A stretch of DNA of 63,263 nt, counting the filler, from Dugesia japonica (lineage: Eukaryota): assembly GCA_001938525.1 (NCBI GenBank). It is 6 parts of 6 records of this genome, joined end to end, with 100 filler letters (N's around TTAATTAATTAA, not from the genome) between each part and the next. Parts side by side here need not be neighbours in the genome. Positions count along the whole stretch, not along the records: positions 1 to 8,995 come from MQRL01592610.1; 5 more parts are not named here. One strand, 5' to 3'. This document shows positions 775 through 62,510 of the stretch, one piece after another (the stretch's first letter is position 1; the number at the start of each line of letters is the position of its first letter). Under the pieces are notes generated by a model, which was given only the letters and a program-made list of their open reading frames with translations, was not told the DNA's origin and ran no database searches. A program made the translations under genes and the position numbers.

Positions 775-2004
775 TTATTTATTTAAAAATTCAACACCTC
801 TCACATTTTCAACCATTGCAATTTTATTATTTGCTAATTTNNNNNNNNNNNNNNNNNNNNNNNNNNNNNNNNNNNNNNNNNNNNNNNNNNNNNNNNNNNN
901 NNNNNNNNNNNNNNNNNNNNNNNNAACATTATTTATATTTAATCTATCATCTTGAGCTGTTACATCAAAACAGAAAATTGGATATAGTTCACCAAATTCT
1001 TGAAGAGATAATTGAGGTTCTATGAAAAAGTCTTGGCAACATTTTATATAATTTAAATAAGGATAAATCATTTCATTATTTGTCATATCAAATTTACATT
1101 CATTAATTGGATAGTAATTGTTATTTAACTGAATTTGCATAGTTTTTAAATAAAATGTTTTGGTTACATTTTTGCATCAACTTTTGTGGTTTTTGTTTTC
1201 TTTTGAATTAATAAATTATTATTATTTGAAAAAGAAATAACTTCATCTTTTATTACTATAAAAATATATCTTGGTTTATATGAAAGATTGCTAATTTTAT
1301 AAGATGAATAATTTCCAGAATCTAATGACATTTTACCTGTTATTCGATTTAGAAATCCAACTTTAATTGGTTTGTCTGTTGAGATTCTTTCTAAAAGCAT
1401 TAATTCCATTTTAGGTGTTAATCTACATTCTGGGATGTGTAATTCTAATGTTAGCAATTTTATTTTTGGTGTGCCTTCCCCTTTAAATAAAAGTTTATCT
1501 TCTAATTGTCGATTGCAACAAAATTCTATCATTGTATTAAAATTTTGTATGAATCCAAATAAAATTCTTAATGGAAAATACCCTTCAAATTTTTTACTTT
1601 TGTATAATTTTTTTCTTCGGTCTTCATCTAAAACCCATCCTGATAATGGTCCATATATTTGTCTATGAAATAAAATTTAAAATTGTTGATATTGTACCAG
1701 GATCGTTAAAAATTTCTACATCTGGTGCTCCAAGTCTTAATCTCATTGTTTTAAATAAAGACGGAAAAAAATTATTTTCCAAGACTGCAGTTTTATCGGC
1801 TTCATTTTCTGTTTCTATTTTAAAATATAACATTGCATTACAAATGTCTAATGGATTGGTGGATTGTAAAGATTGAAAAAATATATCTCCTCCACCCATC
1901 ATATTATTTATTGAACCGGATGTTGGTGAAAACTTTAAAATATCATGTTTTAATAATACATGAGTAAAAATAATATTATTATCGAGATTTATTTTGGCTT
2001 CCAT
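775..2004 (-). pseudogene. Double-jelly-roll major capsid protein (Polinton/adintovirus/PLV-like), interrupted by stop/frameshifts
   Basis: ORFs 1663-2004, 1164-1532 and 775-1140 join into a ~400 aa protein with LENNFFPSLF..MRLRLG..PGTISTILN, FEGYFPLRILFGF, LELHIP, KPRYIF, QLNNNYYP and LYPIFCFDVTAQ. This matches the motif order of invertebrate DJR capsids. Confidence 0.8.
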
Positions 2005-2199
2005 TTTCTATAGTAATTTTTTAAAGATCTTCTAATAATTTTACCATCTCGTCTGCTCCTCTCCATTTTCTTTTACATTTACCATCACCATCAACAATTA
2101 GCATCACTATTCCAATTCACCCTACTATTCCCATTACAATTCACCCTAATATTCCTATTACTATCCCCAACCTCGTTAATAATAATTTTTTTAATAAGG

Positions 2200-2393
2200 G
2201 GGTTTTTTTCAACTCTATCTTCTAATGAAATAAATCTTCCATTTTAATCTCTTTCCATTAAAGTTTTTGTTGTTCTTTTATTGTAAGGAATTTTTAATTT
2301 AATTAAATATGTTTTTATTGTTTTTTCATTTAATGAATGAAGTTTAAAAAAATCTTTTATTGAATTTTTTTTAAAATTATAATTTTTCATCAT
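2200..2393 (-). pseudogene. Small HTH-like protein, copy 1 (..YLxxLxIPYNK..R.xNGRF family)
   Basis: MMKNYNFKKNSIKDFFKLHSLNEKTIKTYLIKLKIPYNKRTTKTLMERD*NGRF. Homologous to 17887-18207 and 15052-15340. Confidence 0.6.
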
Positions 2394-2937
2394 TGTGTGT
2401 AAAATTGTGTCAGGAATTTTTTTATAATTTTTTAGCTGTTGCTCTAGTTATACTTGTACATGTTAGTGGGACTTTCACACGTTTAGATTTTTCTGTAATT
2501 TTTTCTTTCCTTTCTAAATTATTTTAAAAATTTATAATCTCCTTTTGTGAAAGGCGCTTTCTACCTTCTTTTAATGCAAATGAAAAACTCATGTCTTTAT
2601 ATTCCTTTATTATTTTTTGTTTTGTTTTAGAATTATTTATTAGATCTGCACACGCAACATCCATCTTTTGTGAAATAAAAATTGCTGCTAATGATTTAAA
2701 CGCATTTTTATCTTTTTCTATTATTTTGTTTTCATTTTCATCTACTTTTGTTTACATATTTCTTTTAAATAACCTAAATTTTCTTGTATTATATTTTTTG
2801 TTAATTTATTTTTTCTATATTCTTTAATTTTATCAAAATTATTTTCTTCAATTAAATTATTAATTATATCTAATAAAACATTTAAATCTATTTCTTTTTC
2901 TCGCATCATTTTCTAAACAAAAACATCAGAGAAGATC

Positions 2938-3192
2938 TCAAAGATCTTTTGCAGTTCTATATTTTATACATCTTCTTCGTAAATTAAAATTAAAGTCTTC
3001 ATATGTCATCTTTTCTGGTTTAAGATTTTTATTTAATTTTTTTAATCCTGCATTATGTTCATCTCGCTTTTTTTGTGCAATTTTCTTTAACTCACTATTT
3101 CTTTCAGCTAAAACTGTGGCTATCTCACCCTTACAATCTGCATCTAATAATGCCCCAAAAGAATTTGTCGCTGCTGGTTTAAATAATTTCAT
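2938..3192 (-). CDS. Hypothetical basic protein of the virus-like element
   Basis: 84 aa ORF co-oriented with the capsid. Its C-terminal TYEDFNFNLRRRCIKYRTAKD motif is shared with the ORF starting at ~3535. Confidence 0.45.
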   Translation of the reverse strand: MKLFKPAATNSFGALLDADCKGEIATVLAERNSELKKIAQKKRDEHNAGLKKLNKNLKPEKMTYEDFNFNLRRRCIKYRTAKDL

Positions 3193-3764
3193 TTCTTTTT
3201 CATTTATATATTGTTCTTCAATTTTTTATGTATTTCATCAAGACATGATAAATGTTTATTTACTATCTCCACCGTTATTTTATTTTTTTATAACTTTCAA
3301 TTTCATTTAAATATGCGGCTTCTGCACCTTTTAAATTATTAAATGTATTAAAAACTGCTTCTAGCCCAACCACATTTTTTTCATTGTCATTTTTTTAAGG
3401 AATAATTTTAATATTATTTTTCTAAAAATTCTGAAGTCTCTTTTGCCCCTCTCCATTTTCTAGTTCTTGGTTGTAATTGAAAACCAAACTCTTCATAAGT
3501 TAACTTTTTTACAACCTCTTTTTTTCGCGCTTCCATTTTCTAATAGAATAATTTAGTTATTAAATATTTTTGTTGTTGCGTAGAAACCCTGGTTTTAGTT
3601 TAGTTTTTTCCAATACACTAAAAATATGAAAACTAGTAACATGGGTTTTTAAAATTAATCTCACAAGCAGCTTCAGATTTTGCACATTTAGATTCAATGT
3701 CATGACGGAAAATGCGCGATTACATTTTTTACATTCCATTTTATAAATGAAAAATTTCTCATTT

Positions 3765-4015
3765 TTCTCATTTTTCATAAAAAATGAAATTTTTCATTTT
3801 TCATAGTTTATAAAAAATCCCACATTTTCATTTTTCAAAAAAAATTGGAAATCGGAAAATTTTCATTTTTCATAAAAAATCAAAAATCGGAAAATTTTCA
3901 TTTTTCATAAAAAATCGAAAATCGGAAAATTTTCATTTTTCATGGTTTATAAAAAATCACGCATTTTCATTTTTCATAAAAAATCGAAAATCGGAAAATT
4001 TTCATTTTTCATTTT
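3765..4015. repeat. Subterminal tandem repeat, ~35 bp unit aatcggaaaattttcatttttcataaaaaatc(a/g)aa
   Basis: Several adjacent near-identical copies just inside an AGTAG terminus at 4064. Confidence 0.85.
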
Positions 4016-4029
4016 TTTTACCTTTTTAC

Positions 4030-4064
4030 CTTAGGTCGCTTATCCCCGGTTATATCCATCTACT
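4030..4064 (-). mobile_element. Polinton-type terminus (5'-AGTAGATGG...)
   Basis: Minus strand starts AGTAGATGGATATAACCGGGG, next to the tandem repeats and the capsid gene cluster. Confidence 0.5.
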
Positions 4065-7000
4065 GTTAGGGCATGTCACCATTTCACAAGTTTTACCCAA
4101 TATCTCATCTTTACTTTTACCAAAGAAAGCTGATGAAAAGGAAAGTAAATAACGCATAATGAGAAGATTATCTCTTGAGTTTATATTTATAAATTGGAAG
4201 CTTATTTTTGAGGGATTTCAATAAAAGAATTCTAAATTTGTTATGATGAAGATCAACATATTTTGTTGACTGAAATATTGATTACATTATTAGAAGAGTT
4301 GAAAACGTTCATTGTTGATTTTAAGGAGTTTTTGAATTCATGAAATATTTAATAAAAAATAAAGATAAAGATTTAATTTGTTTGTTAAAAAATACAACTT
4401 TGAATTCCTTAAAAAACAAATCATTTTTTGACAATCTTAATTTTATCAACTTTATATTTATTAAATCTGTAAAAAGCAATGGCAATTGCCTAATAAATAA
4501 AATTACTTTATATTCAAATAAAATTCTTCATTATTATAGAGATAAAAACATTTTTCTTTGAATATAAAATAATTTCTTTTCATTAAAAAATTTTTATACT
4601 TTTTCAATTTAAAAAATTAATAATTATAATTATAGTCATCTTATATTCAGTATAATCTCTTTAATCTTTGTTTAAATAATTTAGACTGAATAAACTCATT
4701 TTTCCCCATTTTTTTCTGATGATGAAGGTTGATTCATCGAAATATATAACAATAAATATTTATATTTATTCTTTACATTTAAATCTATTTTTTTATATTT
4801 AATACTTTTATTTAATATTTTATTTAAATATTTATTTTAAAAGGTTTATTTATTTATTTTAAAAGCAGTTGACAAAGAGAAATACAATATAAGTTTTGTA
4901 AGTTTCTAGATAAACTAAATCAATCTTAGTGGAAATTGTTCTCAAAACAAAACATTAAATTTATAAATTATTTTTTATAAAATAAGTTGATATTTTTAAC
5001 TAATTTAATAAAAGCAACTCTATTTGTCGAGAAAAAATTTAATTGAAATATCAACTTTTACTACCTGCTTACTTTTAATTAAAAAAAATTCTATTAATAA
5101 ATGAAATTGACTTAAAATCTTTCTTTTATTTATTTGTAAAAATTATATTCCATTAATATTTAGTTAATAATTTCCCTAATTAATTAATTTACTCAATTTT
5201 TTTCATTTATATTTAAAAATATTTTTTTTGATTAACCTCCATTCAGATTATTAAAAATATTCATGATTTGTTGACAGAATAACAGCGGTGTTTTCAAAAA
5301 AAAAATTACGAAATTTATTTATAAATTCCAAATTAATTTTTTATAAATTCAGGAAATTAAAATAAATTGAATTGCCTGTATTGTTCTTTAAATTTTCAAA
5401 GGAAATTCAATGAAATTAGCTCTAATGCTTGTAATGAAAATCATCTGATAAATATATATTATTGAATGAGTTCATAAACATTTTTATAACAGTAAAATGT
5501 TGAAAGTGATTGCTAAACAATATTTTAAATAAATAATATTTTAAATAAACAATATTTTAAATAAACAATGTTTTACATAAACAATTTTTAAATTTTCAAA
5601 TATTAACAAACCAATATGAAAAATATTTTGTAGAAAGTATAAATTTTTATCATATTATTTATTTATTAAACATTGAGAAAATAAATTACGCTAAAATTTA
5701 CTTGTCAAAATGTAAAATTTGTAATGAATTAATTGTAGTGCTATTAATAGTTTGTCTTGATCGTCATAGTTATACAAACATTCGTAGATCTAAACTGAGA
5801 ATGCACCAGCATTCAATAAATAAAGCTCGAAAAATATCATAAAGAAAATAAATGTATAATAAATATAGTTTTAAAATTTTGTGTGTGGAGAGACGACGTC
5901 ATCTTTTTGTTTAAATGTATCAAAATTAGTGATTCATGTTTAAATGAAGGGATTTTATGATTTTTGTTTGAATTCAGTTGAATTAATGACTTTTTGTTAA
6001 TTGATGTTTACGATTTCTGGGTTAAACTAAAAACCTTAACCGTTTTTAAGGTTTTCATGAGTTTGCTTATTTTTGTTTAAGTTAACTAAAGGTTTTAATT
6101 TTTTAAAGTGAATTTTCCACGGGCAATATTAACAATAGATGCATCCAGGCAATATTAATACAATAAGCAATAACATACAAAAAGCAAATCAAAACACGAA
6201 ATTTATTGACGATAATAACAGTCATTTCATTATAGACTCATAGTCATTTCAATTTGGATCTTCATTGAATATCGAATCTTAATGAAAATTAATAATTTCA
6301 AATAACAAATAAATTTATTACCTTACATTGATTGGACTGAATCAGAGCCTTATTTATTACAAGTCAAAATTTAATATGTGTTGTCGGTTATAAAGAAGTC
6401 AAAATAGAGTTTCTAAAATATATGTTATATCAATATAACATCATCGGCTTCTATATATATTGTTTTAGAATCCATCAGTCTTGGAGATATCTAAGAAAAT
6501 ATATTATGGGACTAAAACAAATAAATCAACGTACCTGACATGCACTCATACAATCAAACATAATAAATTTATACGAGCGTTGAGAGATGATTGTGTAATC
6601 ATCTCACAATGTCCATATGGAATGGTAGAGTATTTATTTATCCATTCTATTTTATCGTCATTGTTACCTTTGTTGTTCTAAAACTATCCAATTGAAATCA
6701 TTATAATGTGTTCAATTTTTGTGTCATGAAATACAATTTTAGTGTAATGGATATTGAATATTAAATTTTGATTTTCTATTAATTTTTAATGTTTGGTTTA
6801 GAATCCAGTGTGATGGATTATAATGTTAACATTCTGACTATTAGATATTAAGTGCTGACTGTTAATTCTTATATTTCATTAAAATAAATTAATAGGTTCA
6901 ATCAAATTAAATTGTGGTTTTAAATATATTCAAATTTTCGATGATTGTCTTCTTCAGAAATATGATGACTTTTTGATGGATTTAATAGATAGTAGAACAT

Positions 7001-7923
7001 TGTTACAAAATTGTTTATATTTTATTAAAATTTTATTGGTTTATTTAAAATATAAATTTTGTTTTAAATTTAATCTCAAAATTTTTAATTAAATTGAAAT
7101 TTTTTAGATGTTAAATTATTAAAATACAACTAATAATTAAATATCTAAAGATTTTCCATTTAATTAATTATTTTGTCTATCCATTGTCTAAAGAACTTAT
7201 AATGAAAAATGCTTCGTTCAGGAAATAATACACAATTGTATAATTAATAATAAATTGTAATTATAATTAAAATAACAATAACTGTTAAAACATTTTTATA
7301 CTTTTAAACTCATTATATATTTCGGAAAATATTCATTCAAAACTTCTGAAAATACTCCCTAATTATAAAAATTATGAAAATACTCCCTAATTATGAAAAT
7401 ACTCCCAATTATTGTTACCAACGGAATCTAATTAGCCAATGTTACCAAATATAATATCAAAATCTTGTTTAAAGTTTTCTATTAAAATTTTCAATAATTA
7501 TTTTCTCGGTGAAGAATTATCACATAAGGTTGAATTTCCTATCAATATTATTAGAATTAAAGGTTTTTTATTTGTTGTATATGATTTGTTATATAAATAT
7601 AAAATATAAAAGTACTAAATAAAAAAGATAAAGGTACTAGGCATTGGATCACTTTAACTTTGGCCATAAATTTTCTCAGTCAAAACTAATTGTATGAACG
7701 AAACTAGTGTCATTAAACTCAAAATTAAAAACTATCTATATATTGTCTAAAGGACTTTTAGCTAAAACTGCTTGATTCTCAAAATAAATAAAAAGGATTG
7801 ATTATATCAGAAATTATAATTTTAATTTAAAATCATAAAAATCAGAATAAAAAACTGTTTAAATATTGCTTAATGAACTACTATCAAAAAACTATAAAAA
7901 TATTTTCACGTTTTTCTATCATT

Positions 7924-8240
7924 AGTAGGTAGATAGTAGCGCACTAGATCATCCCCCCTAGATAAAGAACTTTTATAACAAAGAAGATGAGTCATAAGTA
8001 TGACTAATCGGAGACTAGAACAAAGTCAATGACTCATCGGGATGACTCGTCGATGATTAAAAACAAAGGCGATGACTCATAATGATGACTCATCACTGAC
8101 TAGAACAAAGACAATGACTCATCGATCATGACTCATCGATTTTCTAGATCATGATTAATCGATTTTCTAGATCAATATGACTCATAGTTTTTTCTAGATC
8201 ACGACTCATCGTTTTTCTAGATCAGAGTGACTCATCGATT
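7924..8240 (+). mobile_element. Polinton-type terminus with subterminal TGACTCA array
   Basis: AGTAGGTAGATAGTAGCGCACTAGATC start, nearly identical to 31049. Contains 8 exact TGA(C/G)TCA plus about 4 variants. Confidence 0.65.
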
Positions 8241-9038
8241 TTTTAAAAAAAAATTTTTTAGCATTTTTTTTTCTTAAAAATTTTCAAAATTTTTTTTTAT
8301 TAATTAAACAAATAAAGAGAAACAAAAAAGTCTGTTTAAATAAACATTTATTAATAATATAATTACATTAATTTCTTTTAAACACAGATGTCAATATTGT
8401 CATAGCAGCATATTTAATTCTTCTTCGTGTCTCCAATTTATCTTTAATTTTCTTCGTGAATACTGATCGGACAATAAGTTCAACATAGTCATGTTTACTC
8501 ATTGGACCATTATCAAGCTCGGTTAGGATTTGAATTTNNNNNNNNNNNNNNNNNNNNNNNNNNNNNNNCAATTTCTTAATTTCTTTTTCCAAATAATTCA
8601 TGTTGAGAATAATTTTGAATTATAAAATAAAATTTATTTTACGAAAACTGCTGCTTTTATACTTGCTAAGATACATACATACACGTTATTTGCTAGTTTA
8701 TATTAGTTGTTACCTTTTTGTAACAAATGCTTTGTTTAACTTGCTGTGGTTTTGCATTAATGTTGCACTTAAATATATTAAACAAGGAATTACTAATCAA
8801 AATATATTAATAATCAAAGTAACACATTTTCAAACAATAAAATAAATATATACAAACTTTAATTGACAACATTTAGTATAAAAGCTAAAACATTTAAAAA
8901 ATTTTCATTATTTTCATATGTAATCGGTTGTTACTTTAACAAAAAATAATGTTATGTCTATTATAGTAGATTATGGAAAACCTACTGAATTTCATNNNNN
9001 NNNNNNNNNNNNNNNNNNNNNNNNNNNNNNNNNNNNNN

Positions 9039-10624: not shown

Positions 10625-11600
10625 CTAGACGATTAAACTACACTTGTCAATGAAATTATAACCATCTATATTTTCTCCAGGTTTGGTAATCAAAATGGTT
10701 TTATAATCCCTCCAGATATCCGGAGTGCAACCAGTTTCGTAGATCTTGGAGAATAGGAAGTAAAGAATACTAGCAAGTGGGTCTATTTTTTCAAGAACTT
10801 TGTAGTTGATTTTATCTTGTCCAGGAGCAGAGGAATTGGAGGTATCTTTGAGGACATCAAGGATTTGAGTCTCGGAAAGAATAGCAAATAACAACAACTA
10901 CGAATTCTCTATCTCCATCAAGACCCCCAAAGAGAATCTAAACGTATAGCAAACTAACTACAGGAAAACTTTGTGCCCAATGCGACAAAGAAATGCGACT
11001 GGCGGAACACTTTGCAAAGCTATTTAGCGTCCCGCCTGGCTGCCGAAGAACAATAGTGGATGAGAATGGATAACGGACATCCTTACCTGACACCGTTTGT
11101 GATGGGAATACGGTCAATAACGTTGTTGTTTATGATGATATTAGTGTAGTTTTAATGGTAGAGATTCTTAATTAAGTTAATGCCAAAATTATCCATATCG
11201 TGTTTAGAGAGGATTTCAGTGATGTAGTGGATTGAAACATTTCCAAAAGCATCCGAGATGTCGAGGACGCAAAAATGGAGGTTGGTTTCATAATTTTTTG
11301 CCTTTTCGATAAGAGACAAAGCGAGGTTATGCTCTGTACAGATTTCAGCGGGGCTACAGCATTTTTGCTTTCTGTGTAGGAGATTACTTGAACGAAGCCA
11401 TTCATGAAACTGGTTGCATAAGCCGACTGTGAAGATTTTGTAAGTAGTGCTTAAAAGTGCAATTGGTCTCCAGTTTTCAATAAAATTATAACCATCTATA
11501 TTCTTTCCAGGTTTGGGAACCAAAATGGTTTTATAAATCCTCCAGATATCCTGAGTGTAACCAGTTTCGAAGATCTCGGAGAATAGGAAGTAAAGAAAAC
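10625..11600 (-). mobile_element. Non-LTR retrotransposon RT fragments (RLE-type, R2/R4/NeSL-like), rearranged
   Basis: SAPGQDKI, NWRPIALLSTTYKIF, QK...CTEHN, LDISDAFGNV and GVR*GCPLS. The segment ~10645-10770 is duplicated at ~11475-11600. Confidence 0.85.
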
Positions 11601-12229
11601 CAAAAAATGGTGTAATTTTCTATATTGACAAAACTGTATGAAAAAAGACTTCTCAAAAGCTTGCTTACAGTTTTAATTTTAATTCACTATAAAACTTACG
11701 AAACAACAACTTAGTACTCGCTCTTATTGTTACATGGCATCAACTCGCAGTCTCTATTTACCCAAAGTGATTACTGAATGATAACACAAACATCCATTTT
11801 TCGATTTTTAAAAGAACGTTAATTGTTTTCACTAGGGCGGTTGCCTCGCTCTAACGCCGAGCCTGGGTGGAAAAGTAGTTCTACAGTACTATTACATACG
11901 TGAAATTAATTGCACATTAAATAATTTGGATTCATTAATCATATTTTATCGTACCTGATAAAAATCCACATATTTTTATATTAGTTTTTTTTAAAAAAAT
12001 TTTTCTAGTTAAAGCATAATTTAACAAAGACCGGTGAACTTTTTCGGACGAGTAGCGCAAATGTACTTTAAAATAATAGTGGAAGACTAATAATTGTGAG
12101 CGTGTGATAGATTAATGAAGGGGAACCTTTAAAATGATCCAGCAACAAGTTCAACTTATTTAACATTTCTCAATGTGAATTGGGAAAATTTTTGCAGTGT
12201 AGTTTGCAAGTGAATAACCCCATGGAAGT

Positions 12230-13574: not shown

Positions 13575-14264
13575 ACTTTTATGCAAATCCATGATATCCT
13601 CATCGATTATTTCGATAATTTCATCAAAATATTTTGTATAAAGAGCTAACTAAATAAATAACTGAATTTATAACTGAAGCACATTTTTATATACTTGAAC
13701 TAAATTATTATGAATTGGAGTTAGTTCCTTATTGTCTTTTTGAAATTTATTTAAACCAGCAATAATAGTTTGAATGCCTTTTAATGGCAATGGACATTGA
13801 GGTATTTTTTTGCAAATTTCTTGAATCATATTTAAAACTAATAATGAACAATAATTTTTTAACATTTTAAATCTCCTTACAAAATTTATAATATGTCCTG
13901 ATTTGATTTTTACAACATCCAGATATAAATTCATTAATTCTATCTAATAAATCATTGAATTCGGGTAATTCTGGTGAATACTGACCTATCTTGTGAAATC
14001 TATGCAAAAACATAATAAAGAATTTACTGATAAATTTATTACAGGACATTAGCATGGACTATGGAATAATCTTTAACATCTAAATCCTGTAAAAGAATAT
14101 CTAAATTTAATAAATGAGTACGAAATAACTCAGAAGTTTCATCAAGCAATGAAGCTATTTCTGAAACATCTAAATTTATTATTAGAAATTTCACAATTTT
14201 AAAATATTATAATCATACTCCCTCTTTGCTTAAAAGCATTGCACAGATTATTAATGGCAAGCAT
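13575..14264 (-). CDS. COPS3: COP9 signalosome subunit 3, 5' exons (14264-14219, 14169-14043, 13999-13881, 13837-13695, 13649-13575)
   Basis: Spliced translation LLNLDILLQDLDVKDYSIVHANVL..PLKGIQTIIAGLNKFQKDNKELTPIHNNLVQLALYTKYF..DEDIMDL matches the CSN3 N-terminus (LDVQEHSL; PLRGI..LTSIHADLCQLCL). GT-AG introns of 43-49 bp keep the frame. Confidence 0.85.
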
Positions 14265-15051: not shown

Positions 15052-15340
15052 TTATATATTGAAAGTATCTTTAACAATTGATAGAAAATCATCACTAGAC
15101 ATTTTAGTATAATTAATAAATTTATGTTTATGATTATGTTTATGTTTAGATTTATGTTGAATAGGTTCTTTCTTTTGAATAGGTTTAACTTCAATAGGAT
15201 CTTCAAATCGTTTTATTAAAGAGGAAAATGTTCCATCAACACTTCTATTTTTCTTGTTGTATGGAATATTATACATGTTTAAATATTTTCTTCTTGATTT
15301 TTCATTTAAATTGTATTTCTAGAAAAAACTAGATACATAT
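15052..15340 (-). pseudogene. Small HTH-like protein, copy 3 (5' end interrupted by a solo LTR)
   Basis: VSSFSRKYNLNEKSRRKYLNMYNIPYNKKNRSVDGTF..VKPIQKKEPI, homologous to 17887-18207. Confidence 0.55.
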
Positions 15341-17886: not shown

Positions 17887-18207
17887 TTACATCTTTATGT
17901 TAATGTTTTTAGGTTTAGTTAGACGTTTAATTGGTTTCTCTTGAGTAGGTTTAACTTGAGTAGATCTTATTAAAAAAAATGTAAATCTTCCATTAAAAGT
18001 ACGTTTTTGTTTAATAGTTCTTGTTTGTTTATTATATGGAATATTAAGTAGATTTAAATATTTTGTTATTATTTTAACACATATTCCATGTTTTCTAGAA
18101 AAACTAATTAGAGAATTATTAATAAAATTATAACTCTTGAGAAGCTCATGAAACTCTTCTTCCTTTAAAAAATAAATTAAAAGACATTTAAATAATAAAT
18201 ATTTCAT
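17887..18207 (-). CDS. Small HTH-like protein, copy 2
   Basis: LLKSYNFINNSLISFSRKHGICVKIITKYLNLLNIPYNKQTRTIKQKRTFNGRF. Divergent from the capsid copy 2 cluster. Confidence 0.6.
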   Translation of the reverse strand: MKYLLFKCLLIYFLKEEEFHELLKSYNFINNSLISFSRKHGICVKIITKYLNLLNIPYNKQTRTIKQKRTFNGRFTFFLIRSTQVKPTQEKPIKRLTKPKNINIKM

Positions 18208-18934
18208 GTTCCGTGTTCCGTTTTCCGTATTCAGTTTACAGCTCAGTTTTTTTGTTCGGTTTTCAGTTCTGCGTATAGTTTACTATATACAATTCGGTTT
18301 TTAGATTACAGTTTCTTATATTTTGTCTAGAGAAAATGGCAAGAAAAGAATTAACATTAAACACGTTATACAATTCAATAAAAAGATTAGGGAAAACTTG
18401 AACAGTTTGGTATGAAAGAAATTCAAGGATTTACTAAATGTGAAATAACAGCTAATAAATACATTTCAATTTTAAATATTATGAGTGAACAAATGGTCAA
18501 GTATCAAAGTATTGTGAAATTGATTGTTATAAACGTATGTTTAGTTTTTTAAACAATGAAAATAAAAACAATGCTGTAATTATTAAAGAGTTATATGAAC
18601 AATTACAAAAAGAACGAGATGAACAATATAAACTAAGACAACATACAATTAAAACGAAAAAGAAAATATTGATGAAGTAATGTCCCTAAATATAACCTTT
18701 TATATACCAGATGATGAAGATGATTTATTAACAGAAAGTGAATATAAAAATATAGCTAATATTATATTGAAAAATAATAAATTACAAAACAGGAAGAACA
18801 ACCTTTTAAGATGTTCCCAAAAAATACGAAGATAAAGTAAAATGTATTAGCGCAGCAAAAAAAGATTATATAGAATTAAAAGTTAAATAAAGTAAATCTA
18901 CAATATAGGGCTCGTCATAATAATCCAATAGAAA

Positions 18935-19480
18935 ATGGAGTTAGAAGCGAATAGTAAATATCTTCACTTTCAAAAAAAAGATCTTTTGAAAATTAGTCCT
19001 ACTAGTGGTTCGATGGTAAATTTATATAAATCAAGTAAAATACAATTCCAATCATTATAATCTACTAATCCATTGGATATAGGAAAAAGTATGTTGTATA
19101 TCAAGAGTGAAATAAAATATACTACAAAACTAAATAAAGATGTAACCCTTGCAAATGATTGGTTTCCTAGTTGGTTTAGTAGCATGAGATTAAAACTTGT
19201 ATCTACAACAATTGAAAGTATAGAGAACCCTGGAACAGTTTCTACAATGTTGAATTTAATTTTACATCATGAATCTTCAAAAGCATTTACAAATGCATAT
19301 GGATAGATTCCTGATCATGATTTAGGAACAGTTGATGATAAAAACTTCAATAAAAGAAAGGAACTTTATTCACAAAGATATGAAGGTTATTATTCTCTTA
19401 GAAATTTGTTTGGTTTTTTACAGAATTATAATAAATTACTATTTAATCTTTTATTCAGTTGGATTTTAATATAAATAAAC
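18935..19480 (+). pseudogene. Double-jelly-roll major capsid protein copy 2, N-terminal half
   Basis: MELEANSKYLHFQKKDLLKISPTSGSM..FQSL*STNPLDIGKSMLY..LANDWFPSWFSSMRLKL..NPGTVSTMLN..YEGYYSLRNLFGF aligns with the 775-2004 capsid. Truncated by the Gypsy insertion. Confidence 0.8.
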
Positions 19481-19485
19481 GAGAT

Positions 19486-22400
19486 TGTAAGGATTCAAAA
19501 TTTAAAATTGCAATTTAAAGTTTGAAGAAAAAAATGTTAAAAAAGATTTCAATAAATTTTTAAAAATATTAAAAAACTTTGTTTAAATATTCAGCCTTTA
19601 AAAAACAGTTTTTTTAGATTTGAAGATTTGAAATTTCATAAATAAATCTTTTTTAAATTTAATGGACTTTTCAGAAACTTTATCAGTAATTAATATGGCG
19701 ACCAACGCTTCAATTGACTTCATTTGAGAAGCTCCACACCCTGGTATTTACCGGCATGTTGAAGATATTGAACAGTTTATTAATGGTTCCACCAAATACT
19801 TCGAATGTATTGGTGTAAAGAAAAAGGATAAAAACTTCTTGATGATTGGCTTAATTGATCGAGAATTAAGACAAAAATATAAATGCCAAGATGAATTATT
19901 AGATTTTGAGGACCGACAGAGAAAAACGTTCCACAAAAAGACTTCTCTCATACAAGACTTGGAGAAAGCTTTAAAATACAAGAGAACGGATGAACGCGTT
20001 TATGTGTACAAAAAATGATTTTAACACTGGTTGATAAAATCTTTTCTCACAAACTAGACAAAGAATAGATGACAAAAGAATTAATATTCAATAGATGCCA
20101 CGATAAAAGGATGCAAATAAAAATTAAAGAAAGCAAATTAGCCAACTCGGAAGAGATATTTGAAACAATGAAAACAAATGATGAACTAAAGTAGGAACTA
20201 AAAGAAACGGACAATATAAATACGGTAGAGAGTTACACCAATGCAGTAAAAGAAAGCATGATAAAAGAACGTTTCTCAATAGTTAACCGAACTCAAAATG
20301 AAACTAAAAAAGAAATTACATGTTGGTCATGTCTGAAGATAGGTCATATCAGCAGAGGTTGACCCGAAAAGAAAGGAATGTGTTACGCATGCGGATCAGA
20401 GAATCATATAAGAAGAAATTGTGACAAAATTAGATATTCAAGATGTGAAAAAATGGACATCATACAGAACAATGTTATACTAATTTGGAAAAAAGAGGTA
20501 AATAGACTAATGATAGAAGACTTCAGAATAACAAAGAAAGAAACGAATCAGCATTATACAGCCGAAGAGAGGGAACAAACAAAAAATAGGACGATAATAA
20601 CAGATTCCCGAAACAAAAAAGGATGACATCAACCAATATTGAATTCAGGGAAAGAGACGGCAATAGAGATACAAATGCAATGGTAGAAGAAGATAAGGAA
20701 TACATTATGAGGAGATAATATTTATTATTACGATGAAGAGACAAACAGATATAGAGAAGAGACCCCAAACAGACAAGCTCTATCTAAAATCAAGATGATT
20801 GGAGCAATGAAATTAAAAACAATTCAGATCGCGATATACTTATGTAAAGTAAAAGTAGTTTAATTAATAGTATAAAACATGAAAGTAAAGAGGAAAGAGT
20901 AGACAGAAAAGTTTATGCGTTTTTAAGAAAAATTACAGATATATGTATAATACAGATATCAAGACAATGTAAGAAACAAGAAATGATGATAACAGAATAA
21001 TGGTATTAGAAGAGAATAAACAAGTACAAACAAATTATGATAGAACGCAAGGTAGGCCCAGTTTAGAAGTTAGAATTCAAGGAAGATATATGGACTGCCT
21101 TTTTGACACAGGTGCAAAAATAAACGTGATGAATCTAAATATATTTAGAAGTCTTACAAATGTGGAGCTGATAGAAGCTGATGACGTGTTAAAATGTGCA
21201 AATAATAGCAGTATAAACCTTGTGGGCGAGATATATATAGAAGTGAAAATCGGAGACAGTAAAAAAATAGTTCATTTCACCGTAGTGGAAGAAATGAGTC
21301 CGAATCTTGTTGGAGGAATAGACATGCCATGCCAGTTTGGATACCGTTTAAAGAAAGAAACAAAGGATGGTGAAAATGAACAGTAGATCTGTAACATAGA
21401 CGCAAGGTTTGGTCGCAAAATTGAGGATTTTGAAAGAGAACAGAGAGCTTTAAGAATTTTGATGAAAAAACGAGACCAGAAACTAGAAAAAGGTAATAGA
21501 ACAACATCGAGGAGTATTCATGGCAGATAACTGGTATGTCGGATGCACAATAGAGGTAGAACACAAAATAGTGAAAAAGGATAACACAATAAATACGAAG
21601 CTTTGAAGACAACCAATGAATCAAGAAGAAAAAATGGATACGCCACAAAAAATTTAGCGGACGCTAATATTATAAAAAAATGTAATTCGCAGTGGAATAC
21701 ACCACTGAGTTGCGTCTGAAGAAAGAACGAAAGGATGTGAGACTTTGCTTGAACTTCAGGAAACTGAACGCAGTTACGGAACGACATACCTTACCTATGT
21801 TAAACAAGGAAGAAATGTTAAACAATTTGTATGGATCTAAATATTTCAGTACCATAGACTTGGGAAACACGTATTAACAGGTACAGTTAAAAAAAGAATC
21901 ACAAGAAAAAACAGCCTTTTCGACAAAAATGATAAACATTGCTTCACAAAAATGCCAGTCGGCATAGCAGCAGGTACATTTCAAGAGCTTATGACGAAAG
22001 GATTGAACGGTCTAGATAGAACAATGGTGTATATGGATGACATAATAGTATTCTCAGAACTACTAAAGAGCATTATTTAACTCTGGGTCAGGTATTAGAG
22101 CTGATTCAAAATGCAGGGCTGTGAGTGAATCCAAAAACATGTCACCTATTACGCAAAAAAGTAAAGGTTCTTGGTTACATAATAGATAAAGAAGTAATTC
22201 AAATAGATCCAATGAAAATCGTAGCAATCAAGAATTTTGAGAAACCCAAATGTGTAAAGAGCCTGAGAAGCTTCCTTAAAATATGCAATTATTACAGAAG
22301 ATTCATCAACAATTATTTAAAGAAATCAAGAAGCCTAGAAAAATTATGTGGAAGCAACAACATCAAGTTAATATGGTCAGAAGGATTTGAGAAAGATTTA

Positions 22401-22853
22401 GCAGAAATGAAACAAGCACTGAAAGAAGCACCTATTCTAGAATTCCTGGATATAAAGAAAACATTTACTTTAGATACTGACGCCAGCTTCGACGCAATAG
22501 GAGTGATCCTATCACAAAATGATGATGAAGGAAGAGAAAAAGCTATTGCATACTGTTCGCATGCAATGAAATCACATGAGAATGGTTACTGTATCACACG
22601 GAAGGAATTACTAGCAATCTACTACTTCTGCAATCACTTTATACATTATTTATATTGAAAAAAATTCATAATGAGGACAGATCACAAAAGCATAGTATTC
22701 ATGAAAAAGACGAAAAAACTGATAACACCTCAGTTTCAGACATGGATGAATTACCTTAGCAGCTTATACAAAAAAATCATATATCGACAAAGTAAGAAAC
22801 ACGCTGATGCAGATATGCTTTCAAGAATAAAATACGGAACGTGCACTCTGTGA
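19486..22853 (+). mobile_element. Ty3/Gypsy LTR retrotransposon (gag, protease, RT, RNase H), decayed
   Basis: PBS-like tggcgacc at ~19696, CCHC knuckles (CYACGSENHIRRNC), protease LFDTGA, RT CLNFRKLN / IDLG / YMDDI, RNase H LDTDAS, ELLAI, TDHK, ADMLSR. Confidence 0.93.
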
Positions 22854-23017
22854 GGTAAATTAAATAGACAGATTGATTCGGGGAATTTTTTTGTGGCAAA
22901 TCAATAAAAGAATAATANNNNNNNNNNNNNNNNNNNNNNNNNNNNNNNNNNNNNNNNNNNNTTAATTAATTAANNNNNNNNNNNNNNNNNNNNNNNNNNN
23001 NNNNNNNNNNNNNNNNN

Positions 23018-23480
23018 GCATTAGAAGCAGAGAATAAGCAATTACTACAGCGAAAAATTGAATTTCTAAAACAATATATTGCAGACTTATCGAGGCAGAT
23101 AGGCAACCCTAATACCATGCAGTGGGACGACGATGAGGATATCGCTGCATTCAATTTTGTGATAACGTCCCCGAACCAGTGGCTCGATCCAGGAGCATTG
23201 GATCTCTTTTAAATATGTTTACTTTTAATAAAAATTTTTTTTATCAGAGTTGCAATTTCTTTTATTTGGTGATAACAATAAGGGAAAAATAGTGAACCCG
23301 AAATAAAGGTTTATCGGCGTGTACCTTCCATTAAGAGCAAGGTCAACCGCCAAAAACTGAAAACCTACCACAGGGACGGTAGGGTAAATTCTTGAAAGGG
23401 TTCCCCTGAGGGCTGTTTTCCCCAGCCACCTTTTCGTGTCACCTAACTCAGGTGGGACCCCAACAACTATACAAAACTCT
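23018..23480 (+). pseudogene. Unknown two-ORF cassette, homologous to 29994-30460
   Basis: ALEAENKQLLQRKIEFLKQYIADLSRQIGNP..QWLDPGALDL matches KQLLQRKIDFLKQYISDLSRQLGNP..QWLDPGALDEL on the minus strand at 30290-30460. Confidence 0.6.
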
Positions 23481-26074
23481 CAAATTACCGGCACGAAAAT
23501 TTTTTTTAAATTAACCCAAGAAAAATGCTATAATACACTCTACTATCGAAGATAAATAAATTGTATTAGTAACGTATCGAAGTGAATGTGTATAATTAAA
23601 TGGAAATATATTTATAGACTATATTAACCAAATAAATTTTACGACAAACATTGTTAAAAACTACCATGTAGAGTTGTAAGTATGATGTCAAACTATTTAC
23701 ACGATTATATATACTAATGCTTCATTGCCAAATCTCCGATGAACTATGTTCACAGTGTAAAACGAAACACATATATACTAAAATGATTTAGATCAAACTT
23801 TGAATTTTAAGAAAAATATTAAAATTAGTTGGAACAAAGACTCAAATTTTAACGAAATTTAAAAGTATCTATTTAGCAAAATTATGAAATGCTCAAAAAT
23901 CTNNNNNNNCAGTTATCTGTATAAAAGTATATAAAACTTAAAAATTATTCATGAAATACTTGCTAAGGAAGACAATAATTAATTTTAGCAACAATAAATT
24001 GTACTGATGAATTAGTAATAATGATACACAACGATTTATGGAGGAAAAAAAAATTTTCATTATCTTAAGGATAACTTTTTTTGGCCATCAATGATGAAAC
24101 ACTGATTCCTAGATATAGCCATAATTTTCTAAGAGTTAATTTTATTTTGTATTAATAATTAAACTATAGAATTTTTAAAAATTCTGATAAGACTAATTAA
24201 CATTTTCAAACCATTGTTAACTACAAAAGGTTTGAAAAAATCATCGAATTTCAAGCATTTTTAGAAACATATTTTATTATTTCTTTTTTTTGTATTAGCC
24301 ATTTTCTATACAATTATCTTTTCTTTCAAATAAAATTAAAAGAAAATACACATATACAGAACCTGATTTTATTGCAACTATTATGCAATCTGATAAATGC
24401 GATTATTTGCAGTGGATTTTTTGGGTTCTGGCCCATTAATTGATAGTTTTAGAATTGACCAGGCTATTATCACTTTCANTATCTTTTATTACCTTTTTTA
24501 ATTAAATTTTTAGGTGTATTAATAATCTTTTTGAGTTATTTATATTTTCTGATTAACTGAATTAAATTTAAAATTAATTCCACTTATAACAATTTATTTT
24601 AGTTTGTCTTAAGCTACATCATTATTCCATAAAAATTCGATTTTTATAAGCACTTTTTCCATATTTATAAGCCCTGTTTTTCATTCTAATAATTTGTGTA
24701 AATAATAATAATAAGTGTAAAATTATAAAATATTTAAAAATAGATAACTGTTAAAATATTTTTAAGATATTTTTGTAAAAAAGATTTAAATTCATACATA
24801 TTTAATTCTTTATTAAAATTATATACTATGCCTGGAAGTGATTTATCTGAAGATGATAATCTAGAATTTGAACCAAATAATTGTGAGGAAAAGTTAAAGT
24901 TAAAGATGAAAATCAGTTGTTTAAATAATAATTTAAAATGATTTACAAATAGATAATTAGAAATCGAGTATTGAAATTAACATTAAGCTGAGTAGAAAAT
25001 AATTAGATTATTTATTCATTGGTTTGTGAATTGTGATCTGGACAGTTTTTATTCATTGAATTGCGAATTGTGAACTGGACTTTATTCATTTATTGAATTG
25101 TTGTCTGTAATTTAGTGTTATTGTAAATTTATTATTTTAAGTGTAACGTTGTAATTTTTAATTGTTATTATATTATTGAGCTTATTGTTAATCCTTTATA
25201 TATATAACTAATATCTTAATTGTAATATTTATAAAATTATCATTTAATAATAATTTATTTGTCAATAACCTTTTGAGTTTACTTTTTCCTCACAAGACGT
25301 TGAGTGATGCACTGACATCTCGCAATAATAACGGAAGATCGATTAAATTATGATTCCTGTACGAATTCATTTCTACTAGGAACTAACTAATTGAGTAAAT
25401 TGTTCATGGGATAAAATCACAAATATATGTGGTACCAATCCACTTCGAGCAGAATATATTTAGATAAAGACTGTCCATTTAAAGAAAGTGTCATTGCCAA
25501 ATACGATTGATTCAGTCATTTAATTAATGGAAAATGTGAATTGAGATTCTAAATTTAAATTTTAGAGTTACTGGATGTTCCAGGAAATGATGGCTGTTTT
25601 TGAATAAATAACAATTTTATTATTAATCGATTTTGAAAGGAATTCACCATGCAATTATTTCGTTTCAATATATTCTTGGAAAAAAAGAATTTTCAGTTGC
25701 AATTAATATAAACCCTGTTTTATTTTCGAAAAAACGCTATATAAATTAATTATAAATTAAGAAATAATAGTTAATTAATTTTAATTATGAATTTTAAAAA
25801 ATTTTGTTTGGGCATACTTGTTTAATTATTAACGCTAGAGGAAAACAGTGTCATTTATTGAACAAATAACATTGTTAAATACTCAGTAGATTTTACAAGA
25901 GAATTAGCAGTTACTTGATTTGGGTCAGCATCTTTCTTTCAAGAATTCTACATTGCAGTGGCAAGATCAGCACAGATCAATAAAAAATGGCTTAATGTGT
26001 CTTAATTGTGATATGCAATGAACCCTGAATTATTGTGGAGAATTAATATTGATGCTACTGCTCTCATTTATGCT

Positions 26075-26643
26075 AACTCATTACTCAAACGTAATTATGT
26101 AGAACACTGGAGGTTATTAAAAATATATATAAAATTAGGTACCAAATTTATACAGGATAATATTTTTAAAGAATACATAGATAGCAATACAAAATTAAGA
26201 TCTCAAAGCCAATCGAAATTGGACAAAAATTATTATAAGCTGTTGAACAACAGTCTTTATGTAAAGTCTGTTGAAAATTTGAAGAAACGTCCGAATCTCC
26301 GGCTCTGTAAATCAGCTGAAAAGATGATGGCCTACATCTCAAAGCCTGAATTCAATAAAACTATTAACATAGATACTAACCTATTAGCAGTGTTACTCAA
26401 TAAAGACATTGTTTGTCTGGATCGTCGAAGTTATATCGGTCAAAGAGTGAAAATACTTCTAAGAAAGCTAAGGGTATGACATTAAAAGGTACCGACATAA
26501 ACCACTAGTCGTATCTTGATCGTGATAATAATAATCTAAAGGTCCCAATTAACCAATTTAGAATTTGCAGTAAAGATCATCAACTATTTAGCATTAATGG
26601 TCTTAAAGTAGCTTTGATTAACACAGACGATAAGCGTGTATAG
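26075..26643 (+). pseudogene. Protein-primed family B DNA polymerase (Polinton/adintovirus pPolB), C-terminal fragment
   Basis: FKEYIDSNTKLR..YYKLLNNSLYVKSVENLKKR (the KLxNNxxYGK..EN motif B), ..SYIG, and C-terminal KVALINTDDKR at ~26605-26640. Confidence 0.85.
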
Positions 26644-27559: not shown

Positions 27560-29517
<1,958 letters not shown>

Positions 29518-29993: not shown

Positions 29994-31497
29994 TTAAAGA
30001 ACTTTTTTAAATATACCAGTTGCCATAGTAGTGTTGGGGTTCCACCTGAATAGATGATAAAACGGAAAAACTGACCGAGGAAAACGGCCCTCAGGGGTTC
30101 CCTTTCGAGAATTTAAATCTAACGCCCCTATGTTAGATCTTCGACGCAGAGCGGTTGATCTTCGACCTTTACGGGAGGTGCTCACTCGTACATCTTTGTT
30201 TCGGGTTACTTATTTTCCCTCATTATTTTACCCAACAAACCGATCAACACATCAATAATAACTACATTATATTTCAAGAATTACAATTCATCCAGAGCAC
30301 CAGGGTCTAACCACTGGGCCGGATCGGTAACCAAAAAATCAAAAGACGCTTGGTCATAACTATTGTCCTATTGGATCCACGTTGGATTCCCCAGTTGACG
30401 CGATAGGTCAGATATATACTGTTTGAGGAAATCTATCTTTCGCTGAAGTAATTGTTTACACTGGTTTCTAGGTTTTTTGTTTGGACTGCAAGATAGTTCT
30501 GTTTCTTTATGATTAGATCTAGTTTTTTTATTAACTCGCTGTGCGAGATGTCTCAAAAGTTCACGTTCGGTCTGGCGCTTAAGGTGTCTCTCTACCAGTA
30601 ATCGACGCATTATTCTGTGACAACGTATTAGATTGTCGGGGAATGTAATTTGTGGCACTGAATTAGAAGGCATTAATTTCGGTATTTAGTTCAATATAGA
30701 TATGCTAGTAAATAAATGGGTGCCAAACGTAATAACAATTTAGCCAAAAAGACAATTTTATTAATGAAAAAGGAATTGATAGAATTCATGGGCGAGTCGT
30801 TTGGGTTCCTTTATCTACCATAAGAGGCGCGAGCGACATGATCCTTTTTAACTTCAAGATATCGTTGACCAGTTTATTTTCTCGGTCTTGGTAGGACCGG
30901 ATGACTTCAGTAAATGATTCTAGTTGATTCTTCCTCGCCCTCTGTCTTTAAGGCTAGACATTTCTTTTTGTAACGACGGACTTCGGCTTCGGCAGATGTA
31001 GAATCTGGTTCCCACCGCCGTTTCGAAATTTTATAAAGATCACATGTAAGTAGGTAGACAGTAGCGCACTAGATCACCCCCCAGACAAAGAACATGAGTC
31101 ATCGGCCGATAGAACAAAGACAATGACTCATCGCGATGAGTGATCGTTTTTCTAGATCAGTATAATAGATCTGTAATAACTTGAAATTAAAATCAAACTT
31201 AGCGATTTACTAAGTTATTAAATAGTACGTGAAAAGAAAAATTGCAAAACATTCAAGTAAGATGTGTAATTTATATTTAATTTAGATTAAAGATAAAACC
31301 AGTTACGGTAGTCAGTTATCTCCGTCTATATTAACGACACAATGCAAGGGAAATAATTCAGCGAAGCATTGAAGGTCCAGTTCATCCGGGGTAGGAATAT
31401 GATCTGGAAAGAGAAGATGTGCAACTAATTGATTCCGACGGATCCGCTTACGTTCCCGGCGAATGACACGGAAGGCGTTAGTTAAAATGGTGGACAT
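29994..31497 (-). other. Cluster of small, relatively GC-rich, co-oriented ORFs (virus-like accessory genes)
   Basis: ORFs 29994-30185, 30368-30673, a frameshifted 30786-31035 and 31312-31497. Intronless, basic/coiled-coil, with a second partial copy at 23018-23480. Confidence 0.45.
31049..31160 (+). mobile_element. Truncated Polinton-type terminus with TGACTCA sites
   Basis: AGTAGGTAGACAGTAGCGCACTAGATCACCCCC..catgagtcatc..gacaatgactcatc, same family as 7924. Confidence 0.65.
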
Positions 31498-31804
31498 TGA
31501 TCTGAATAAAATTAATTAATGATACCCACTGAATTCTCTTGTTTACGAAAATGTGGATGGTGTTGCAATAATTATTCGAGTTTAAAATTCATCGTTCAGT
31601 TTGTCACGCTCGTAATCCACAAATAATATTAGACTACTCAATTAACAATTAGTTTGTATAACAACAGGGAAATTATGATATTACAGGGTTCCCTATCATC
31701 GTTGCCCCCAAAACAATCTTAAATATTAAAAAGAAAACATCAATTATAGTTTATCGGAATATTGATGCCCTAGTATCTATCACCAAATTCCACCGGTTCG
31801 CTAT

Positions 31805-32160
31805 AATAATAGCATCAACTAATAACAACAACACTTAAAATAGTAAGAATAGTATTGTTAATAAGAATAATCATTATAACGACAATAATAATAATACCGG
31901 TGATAAGAATAATAAAATTAGCAATACATATAATAACGATAATCATGATATTAGTTCTAATGATAATACTATTAATATTAATACTAATAATAATAATAAT
32001 GATCATGTTAATAATAAGAATAATAATAATGATAAAAATAATGATAATAATAATGATAATGATAATAATAATACTAGTAATGACCATAATATTAATACAA
32101 AATTACTATCAGTAATAATAATCCTAGTGCCAAGAGCAATAATAACCACGATAATTGCGT
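31805..32160. repeat. Degenerate (AAT)n microsatellite
   Basis: Runs of ata/atg/aat triplets that produce spurious poly-Ile ORFs. Confidence 0.85.
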
Positions 32161-33399
32161 AATATGAAATGAATAGGGGATTGTTAATACCTAATAAACG
32201 TAATAGTTAATCATTCATAATGCTAATCATTGATATTGTCAAACTTAATGAATCATAGAGAGAGTAATAACGCATTGATATCTGTGATAATATTTATTCA
32301 TGGTGACAATTGGGACAGATAGAGAGCATACTCTCGAATAGATTACAAGAGCAATATTCGTCATTTATCACAATAGGAATAGCGCCAAGAACCTAATGAC
32401 TATAGTCAGCTGATCAGAATCCTTTATCGATCTAGTCCACCTCAATAATTATTATTTCACATTTATATCCAATCAACGAAAGGTTAAATAGTTCGACCCT
32501 TATATTTTTAATAACTAACAGAATGACGACATAGTTGATTTATAGAGCTTTGGTGGAGAACCATTTTCCACGCCATACCAATAGTCACGGTGGCTCGAGG
32601 ACTTAACACATCCATGAAGAATCAGGAACAGTTTTATTTTCGACTAGTAGTATGAGAAATTATCCAGTCAGGTTATTATGATAATTAACTCTTCTGAATT
32701 ACCACCGTTAGGTATGATTGCAGAAGAAATACTACAGTAGGAATAAATCTCGAAAGTCACCGGATCTGAATTCATCACACAAGTATTTGAGTCTTGGCTA
32801 ACCTAACCCATCAATAAGATAACTGGTTAACCGCAGATATGGTTTAGTGATACCGGACATGTTCTCTGTTATAACTGTCATAATTCGTCACCAGTCTAAC
32901 ATGAATCATCAATATTGCTGTCTGGTTGGCACACCTACTGATTCGTTGGATTAGGATATTAAGTCACTTTGTGTAACTCACTTGTAAAATCAAAACGATG
33001 TCTATTGGAGTTTAATTATCTCCAGTGTTGTTGTGGTGTTTTTAAGAGGATGGGCCTGTCATTAAAACGTCTGATCGGCAATTTTGGTGAGAAATAGAAA
33101 AGAATATCACAAAACATTCAGGAATCAGTTACTAATTGGGCAATTTACTAGATAAAATTCATTTATAATCTAAATTATTTTGTTGTAAATTAAATAAATA
33201 TAAAATTAACATAGATAAGTTCATTTATTTATAAAATATAATACATAAATAACAAATAAACATATCACTCACTATTTAAAATTTTGTATTTGAATAACTG
33301 CNNNNNNNNNNNNNNNNNNNNNNNNNNNNNNNNNNNNNNNNNNNNNNNNNNNNNNNNNNNNNNNNNNNNNNNNNNNNNNNNNNNNNNNNNNNNNNNNTA

Positions 33400-42511: not shown

Positions 42512-42915
42512 AGTAAGTAGATCCTAGCGCACAGTAACACCCCAAGGTCAAGGTTAATTTTTTTCAAGGTGAGTGGTATAGTAAAATCGATTCTGATTGG
42601 TCGAAATTTTGAAGGTCAGCGGTACAGTATACTAAATATACTAGCATTCTCTCATGAACTTGTATCGTAAAATGATTCCTTCCCTATTAAAATCGCGATT
42701 AAAGGTAAAGTAGTGAGACAGGTCAGCACTGAACCAGTAACCTCCTCCACCTACCCAGGAAATATTTTTTGTCAATCTTTTTTTTCGAATTTTGATTTTT
42801 AATTTATTTTTTCGATTTTTATTTTCATTTTTATTCAAGGTCATCGAAATTTTTTTCTTCAACGTCAGAATTCTTTTTCAAGGTTATCAAAAACCTTTCT
42901 TTCAAGGTCATGAGT
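42512..42915 (+). mobile_element. Polinton-type terminus with subterminal (T)CAAGGTCA repeats
   Basis: AGTAAGTAGATCCTAGCGCAC start followed by about 7 AAGGTCA-like motifs. Confidence 0.5.
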
Positions 42916-45559: not shown

Positions 45560-45948
45560 CCTCTCAATAGATTGTTTATTTTTGTAAGTTATCTGGATTT
45601 CCATCTTTAAGCATTATCTTGATTGCAGCTTCGATTTTGATATATTATTTTTATTTTATAGGTACAGCTCCTGCAAATCTACTAAATACATCAATACACG
45701 TTAAAATATACTTGTAACCTTCATTAATTCTTGAATATGGGATCATTTTCATCAAACCCATTTGCCAAAAATCATCAATCCCATGTTTTATACGGTCTTT
45801 TTGGGAATCTTTTCAACATTGGCTTGTGTAGAATGTACGCTAATTGGTTCGCTAAACCCTCTTTTGATTCGCTTTTTGTTGCTTTCCATAGCTTTTCCAC
45901 TCCTTTAAACCCTACTGGATGTTTTGGGTCTGTCCATATTGTTTCCAT
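45560..45948 (-). pseudogene. Polinton/Maverick integrase N-terminal part
   Basis: METIWTDPKHPVGFKGVEKLWK..YILHKP..FPKRPY..GYKYILTCIDVFSRFAGAVPIK. Confidence 0.88.
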
Positions 45949-46009
45949 TACAACAGTTTGATATAAATTTCAGATAAACTCGTGACAATGACTCTAAATC
46001 ATCCATTGT

Positions 46010-62465: not shown

Positions 62466-62510
62466 AGTAAATAGATGGTGGCGGATCAACTAACTTCACC
62501 TTGAACCACT
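62466..62510 (+). mobile_element. Possible Polinton-type terminus
   Basis: AGTAAATAGATGGTGGCG resembles the AGTA(G/A)GTAGA..GCG termini elsewhere in the window. Confidence 0.35.

Follow-up and report, generated by a model that had tools for sequence, protein, structure and literature searches.

The window, by which we mean the whole stretch of DNA analyzed here, comprises 63,263 nucleotides of the Dugesia japonica genome (GenBank assembly GCA_001938525.1), has a G+C content of 26% and consists of six contig pieces joined at spacers at 8996, 22918, 35530, 43909 and 54038. Our analysis centered on 7924–8242, near the right edge of the first piece, and the features that bear on it are the following.

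7924–7955, plus strand: terminal block beginning AGTAGGTAGATA, almost certainly the left end of an element whose interior lies to the right (depth step, loose read ends, shared ends)
7988–8234, no strand assigned: eight exact TGA(C/G)TCA heptamers and four variants (motif count)
7977–8140, plus strand: 3.9 tandem units of about 42 bp, each with AACAAAG followed by two ATGA(C/G)TCAT-type cores 13–14 bp apart
8124–8242, plus strand: 4.9 tandem units of 23–26 bp, each with one ATGACTCAT-type core and TTTTCTAGATC
8243–8995, no strand assigned: element interior, high-copy save for a dip at an A/T run (8269–8325), cut by the contig end
8368–8601, minus strand: intronless 77-codon ORF pointing towards the array (homology, family HMM)
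31049–31160, plus strand: short copy, the terminal block and three cores with no element interior behind (alignment to the 7924 end)
7924, 31049, 42512 and 62466 (plus strand) and 36171, 38159, 39003 and 53864 (minus strand): ends with a common block of about 32 bases and unrelated flanks (matrix search)
42512–42912, plus strand: sibling end with the same kind of terminal block, then AAGGTCA/CAAGGT repeats, and no AP-1 sites
775–4064, minus strand: a different element with packed ORFs and broken capsid-like genes, its end at 4064 reading AGTAGATGGATA on the minus strand

We regard it as nearly certain that an element truly ends at 7924. Four of the 24 listed runs were compared with 7300–8995 at 80% likeness (17 runs of small share other than X16 were left out), and summed contig depth rises from about 1,700 at 7813–7869, which belongs to another repeat, to 66,000 in X1 and 87,000 in X2 at 7927–7983. 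Between these two bins the step is 40-fold in X1, 50-fold in X2 and 268-fold in X16; summed contig depth is not a copy number, and single-copy contigs have a depth of 5–10. RNA reads from other copies leave the alignment before 7923 (23 reads) and 7924 (41 reads) and enter varied flanks (agreement 0.48). The preliminary description of this DNA had called the stretch a terminus present in many copies, and both statements are borne out by the step and the varied flanks at 7923/7924, and by the 4697 (X1) and 4889 (X2) contigs that align on the 1.7 kb; as most of these thousands of contigs are less than 95% alike, the element family must be large and diverged. To the right, median summed depth in the interior is 17,900–24,100 in X1 and X2, against 5–10 in single-copy contigs, and the high depth runs on to the contig end at 8995, 1072 bases past the array start, where the linker follows at 8996. 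Because no contig among those listed bridges the array and the ORF over the dip at 8269–8325, the link between array and interior rests on the copy at 7924 and on similar peak depths; array and ORF are both found in X16, a run that bears a different species label. A 21-base pattern of the end had no match in viral and metagenome contigs. Outside the end, the flank at 7699–7923 is itself repeated. It resembles the sequence beside the 38159 end (38183–38271), with the register almost preserved, which suggests either a preference for certain targets or a composite repeat; contigs also pass directly from 7756 to 7921.

Behind the terminal block, exact TGA(C/G)TCA heptamers begin at 7988, 8030, 8073, 8086, 8115, 8129, 8178 and 8228 and variant cores at 8001, 8043, 8152 and 8202, so that all twelve are packed in 249 bp. 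Six of the eight exact sites have the form ATGACTCAT, one ATGAGTCAT and one GTGACTCAT. An earlier count of eight exact sites, mostly of the first form, and about four variants thus stands unchanged, as does the statement that they are interleaved with two further units: TAGAACAAAG is present twice in exact form (the shorter ACAAAG four times) and TTTTCTAGATC four times. Spacing between cores in the units of about 42 bp alternates between 13 and 29 bp. The AACAAAG of these units resembles Sox/TCF sites. The whole window holds 13 exact TGASTCA heptamers, of which eight are in this array and two at 31095 and 31124. The densest 250-bp cluster has eight sites, against no more than two in each of 60 Markov simulations, and none of 5000 local shuffles had more than two; both controls overstate the surprise because the stretch is a tandem array. 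The sites are copies of repeat units and therefore represent one or two founding motifs, not twelve independent ones.

Could such an array be the product of neutral tandem expansion, in which a short unit that happened to hold TGACTCA was multiplied and then copied with the element, having no function? All sites do derive from one or two units, and the number of units varies freely among copies, as follows from contig joints that skip 45–251 bases. For a founding unit between 13 and 66 nt long, the probability of containing the heptamer by chance is 0.2–0.8%, which speaks against the idea, but this figure is uncorrected for the many other motifs that could have been recognized. Further points against it are that the array is found under two species labels and, above all, that the core is common to both unit types and more strongly conserved than the sequence flanking it. 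When 15 units were compared, the majority base reached 73–100% over the 11 bases ATGASTCATCG and 33% at the positions on either side, and the center of the core was C or G in 14 of the 15. We think neutral expansion improbable. The most conserved part of the array is ATGA(C/G)TCAT, the preferred site of Jun/Fos/ATF3/BATF dimers, and its varying center base is the one that AP-1 tolerates. This core is probably a selected protein-binding site; as to its binder, we predict a host bZIP protein with about even confidence.

Variation among copies suggests decay in the copy at 7924. At all four variant sites most other copies are closer to the heptamer, and at three of the four they are then exact; the trend covers all four sites in X1 and X2 and is also present in X16 and in the RNA run, although the result is biased because contigs from any unit can align to any other. 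The exact sites were hit by none of the nine other differences among those listed, which is not significant (P = 0.14).

A shorter version of the array had also been noted at 31049–31160, and it aligns to the 7924 end from the first base (42 of 47 identical). Its cores comprise two exact sites (31095 and 31124) and one variant, and it lies in the third contig piece, with linker gaps between it and the long array in the first. A joint from 7957 to 8101 in X1 and X2 contigs gives a form similar to this short copy. The six bases to its left have no second occurrence in the 550 bases that follow the short copy. The short copy lies inside a G+C-richer repeat at 30025–33100, related to 23035–23470, and this surrounding repeat includes an AAT-rich tract at 31859–32097.

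The eight ends listed above were found with a matrix that six of them had been used to build, for which reason the set is partly circular; positions 27–32 lay outside the matrix and are shared as well. Six weaker matches (30315, 31785, 23178, 35939, 16599 and 16541), with no AGTA/AGAAG start or no distal block, were left out. AP-1 cores are found at 7924 and 31049 alone among the eight. The 42512 end instead has four AAGGTCA in 400 bp, against no more than two in each of 60 simulations (the pattern was chosen after it had been seen), together with several CAAGGT; we take the AAGGTCA repeats to resemble nuclear-receptor sites. Among the remaining ends, four lacked any enriched 7-mer and the one at 62466 had just a weak enrichment. 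Twenty-one RNA reads track the 7924 block to 7958 and then enter sequence of the 42512 family. We rejected a connection between the 53864 end and the ATPase/integrase-like pieces (45300–47250), since the two are separated by 6.6 kb of unrelated sequence that includes a gypsy fragment. The same seven outer bases, ACATGTA, are seen at two different ends (31042–31048 and 39004–39010), possibly a target preference, and a second stretch starting with AG lies at 42407, near the 42512 end.

These ends bear on another explanation of the array, namely that its repeats are sites for a protein of the element itself (an integrase, a terminal protein/polymerase or a transposase), the palindrome suiting a dimer and the likeness to AP-1 sites being coincidental. 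Subterminal repeats bind element proteins in many DNA transposons. The array does lie directly behind the end, its spacing is regular (13/29 and 23–26 bp), and other ends have arrays of their own, including an A/T-rich 35-bp array at 3777–4012 without an obvious host motif. Against this explanation, nearly identical terminal blocks are followed at different ends by different subterminal motifs or by none; moreover, two of these motifs look like those of unrelated classes of host factors, and the center base that varies is the one tolerated by AP-1. On balance we find an element protein an unlikely binder.

To what kind of element does the 7924 end belong? We read it as the left end of a DNA element that is abundant and diverged in the flatworm and is most likely a Polinton/Maverick, an assignment that we hold to be reasonably likely. 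The end begins AGTAGG, that is, with AG and with five of the six bases of (AGT)2, and vertebrate Mavericks end in (AGT)2 or (AG)3 with 6-bp duplications (PMC8097293, in the portion of the text available). Mavericks are abundant in Dugesia according to the accessible part of a preprint (bioRxiv 10.64898/2025.12.11.693146). The label "Polinton-type" given to the stretch in the preliminary description is plausible in view of the AG start and of the 4064 end, which is similar and delimits a capsid-like module, but the 1072 bases available hold no Polinton core gene. Specifically, 8243–8995, behind the 7924 end, has no polymerase, integrase, ATPase or capsid gene, and no inverted partner repeat for the 7924 end or the short copy was found in either contig piece, the first piece ending 1072 bases inside the element. 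A piece of pPolB (26012–26476, PF03175) and integrase-like pieces sit in other contig pieces, not with the 7924 end, and the capsid-like genes at 775–2007 are not attached to it because they lie outside a right-facing end.

The element that ends at 4064 has packed minus-strand ORFs and its own subterminal array, the 35-bp one at 3777–4012, which has no AP-1 sites. Over the first 12 bases its end agrees with that at 7924 in 10, and this match to an end that bounds capsid-like ORFs is the best local support for the Polinton reading. Matches of this quality are common by themselves (14 seen against 8.8 expected), and this one carries weight solely because 4064 lies where the array meets a histone H2A fragment. 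The capsid call at 775–2007 is weak: the genes score 0.96–0.97 to double-jelly-roll clusters in the atlas, under the recognition bar, the last piece matches PF21738 at E = 0.018, and the capsid-like piece had no match among longer proteins or in the PDB and gave a single-sequence model of pLDDT 34. Within 775–4150 the 4064 end abuts a stretch encoding the C-terminal portion of histone H2A (PF16211, E = 7e-8), and we conclude that it is the right end of a Polinton-like element that inserted into one copy of a histone gene. Another broken gene of capsid-like type (18932–19471) is 41–53% alike to 1167–2007, and two paralogous small ORFs lie at 15055–15318 and 17890–18279. Other Polinton-like debris was seen at 26012–26476, 39203–39708 and 45335–47250, in which we take the pieces without Pfam confirmation to be integrase-like, Walker A ATPase-like and a short basic/hydrophobic ORF.

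The one compact intronless ORF within the available interior, a feature not specific to Polintons, is that at 8368–8601, with an assembly gap at 8538–8568. It is 67% identical to P0001, and a protein search gave 15 matches at E ≤ 0.001, one of which, P0128, is an unrelated repeat protein and was dropped from the alignment. The family so defined, against whose HMM the ORF scores E = 4e-21, has members of 79–112 aa with a C-terminal stretch that is hydrophobic by hydropathy, the tail of our ORF being shorter than those of its homologs. Relatives come from ENA, JGI and Logan assemblies and are essentially unnamed, those at 30–55% being from environmental assemblies. Searches of Pfam, PHROG, the atlas and BFVD folds named no family (best fold E = 0.64), and 8600–8995 had no Pfam match in any frame. 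No genomic context was found for the family: four candidates from scans with single members, L001 and L002 (bacterial, antisense to another gene), L003 and L004, were rejected because none scores with the family HMM.

The alternative that the end belongs to another or unclassified DNA transposon is compatible with any role of the array, and we consider it rather unlikely. Besides the missing core gene, it could account for the density of ends, eight in 63 kb or about one per 8 kb, a high density for a Polinton and one that a transposon giving rise to MITEs would equally explain. In its favor, too, are the likeness, in an almost identical register, between 7814–7891 and the sequence beside the 38159 end, and the seven outer bases that the 31049 and 39003 ends have in common; given such common flanks, some ends may sit inside larger repeated units. 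It is opposed by the AG start, by the similar end on the capsid-like module, by the outer bases of the eight ends, which have no common TA or TTAA target, and by the small intronless membrane-type ORF, which, with its environmental relatives, suits a virus-like element. A tRNA-derived SINE, suggested by the A-box-like terminal block, was rejected: no B box was seen by eye, and Rfam gave no match in the whole window at the gathering score.

Resuming with a Polinton/Maverick as the likely owner of the end, how might the array work? We would propose that the first 32 bases or so serve as the element's own end signal, for integration and protein-primed replication, and are common among families, and that behind this signal each family may carry its own module of host transcription-factor sites. 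In the 7924 family, dimers of host bZIP proteins such as Jun/Fos/ATF3/BATF would then be recruited by the module, which would serve element genes as an enhancer, act as an auxiliary origin or do both, and the activity of the element would be expected to rise when injury or stress induces AP-1. This reading as a whole, in which a module specific to the family lies behind a conserved terminal block and recruits Jun/Fos-type dimers, is drawn partly by analogy and is tentative, somewhat short of an even prospect. The bZIP genes Atf, Batf and Creb are annotated in a planarian. The ORF adjacent to the array faces it rather than pointing away; because the terminal repeats of such an element are inverted, the copy of the array expected at its opposite, unseen end would be situated upstream of the minus-strand genes. 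In about a quarter of an RNA run (oligo-dT; condition and strandedness not known), 562 of 13.6 million reads matched 7300–8995, of which 92% continue into dissimilar sequence, and neither starts nor ends pile up at the array. These observations together count against a promoter at the 7924 end. First mates over the array were 2.8 times more often on the plus strand, which, if the library is of the usual stranded kind, means minus-strand RNA leaving through the end.

Known systems resemble this arrangement in part. Polinton/Maverick ends likewise have an AG start and a repeat region of a few hundred bases (46–1447 bp in vertebrates), with solo and partial ends scattered in the genome (PMC8097293, PMC11414722), and putative transcription-factor sites have been noted alongside the ends of C. 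elegans Polintons (PMC8097293, PMC11414722), as far as the available portions of these papers go. The 7924 end differs in its hexamer, AGTAGG instead of (AGT)2 or (AG)3, and pairing, duplication and core genes were not seen here; the literature found on Polinton/Maverick ends held no dense AP-1 array. In adenoviruses, which have a linear genome replicated by protein priming, the ITR has a conserved terminal core followed by NFI, Oct-1, Sp1 and ATF sites (PMC5717082, in the part available), and we would liken the two only in how they may work, since the ITR has a few different single sites with function shown, whereas here there are twelve tandem AP-1-type cores, integrated, at high copy and putative in function. 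Baculovirus hrs, like the array, consist of tandem units in which bZIP sites alternate with a palindrome, and they act as both enhancer and origin with a strength that tracks motif number; they differ in being internal to a circular genome, in having mostly CRE rather than TRE sites, in their need for viral IE1 and in their unrelated sequence (PMC13513840, available portion). Searches of the literature on Polinton ends, planarian TGACTCA and planarian ATAC/AP-1/transposons, which covered few subscription journals, gave no description of the array, and the terms AP-1, Maverick and Polinton are absent from the main text of two planarian chromatin papers (PMC11410931 and PMC9522251). Repbase may already have an entry for the element.

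Might the host, rather than the element, be the beneficiary, with copies taken over as wound-responsive AP-1 enhancers of regeneration genes? The AP-1 motif is what the array has in common with regeneration-responsive enhancers, and it marks those of fish and fly (PMC10232395, from the part of the text available), although these are host sequences with injury activity shown, and here we have a mobile-element end known from sequence. Copies are very many, solo ends exist (31049), and most ATAC peaks in one planarian study were uncharacterized or not conserved, all of which such a takeover could accommodate. Yet no host gene save the H2A fragment was recognized in the first contig piece, the single RNA run had no start site, and the copy at 7924 appears to be decaying; we consider host takeover very unlikely. 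A broader version, in which planarian Polinton-like elements carry interchangeable host-factor modules behind one end, each family tuned to a different signal, the AP-1 family being wound-switched and its ends supplying a share of the injury-responsive enhancers, is a long shot. The array bears on what triggers animal Polintons and on the source of planarian wound enhancers: if it is bound by AP-1, injury signaling would be linked to a virus-like element, and this in an animal whose reproduction and regeneration both depend on somatic stem cells; if it is not, it is an ordinary subterminal repeat.

Other sequences in the window include fragments of gypsy-type gag/protease/RT/RNase H, a LINE RT with internal duplication, mariner and hAT-like elements (20363–22850; 10628–11619; 1–430; 27646–29405). 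A pair of 180-bp inverted repeats (86%; 37811–37990 and 40583–40759) encloses about 2.6 kb, with a third copy at 6872–7025. Host exons of mitochondrial ClpX, a protein kinase and COP9 subunit 3 were also recognized (54709–55792; 41512–41766 and 36706–36894; 13671–13943), and for the ClpX exon at 54709–54993 the best named relatives are from flukes and tapeworms, at 66–75% identity, ahead of other animals.
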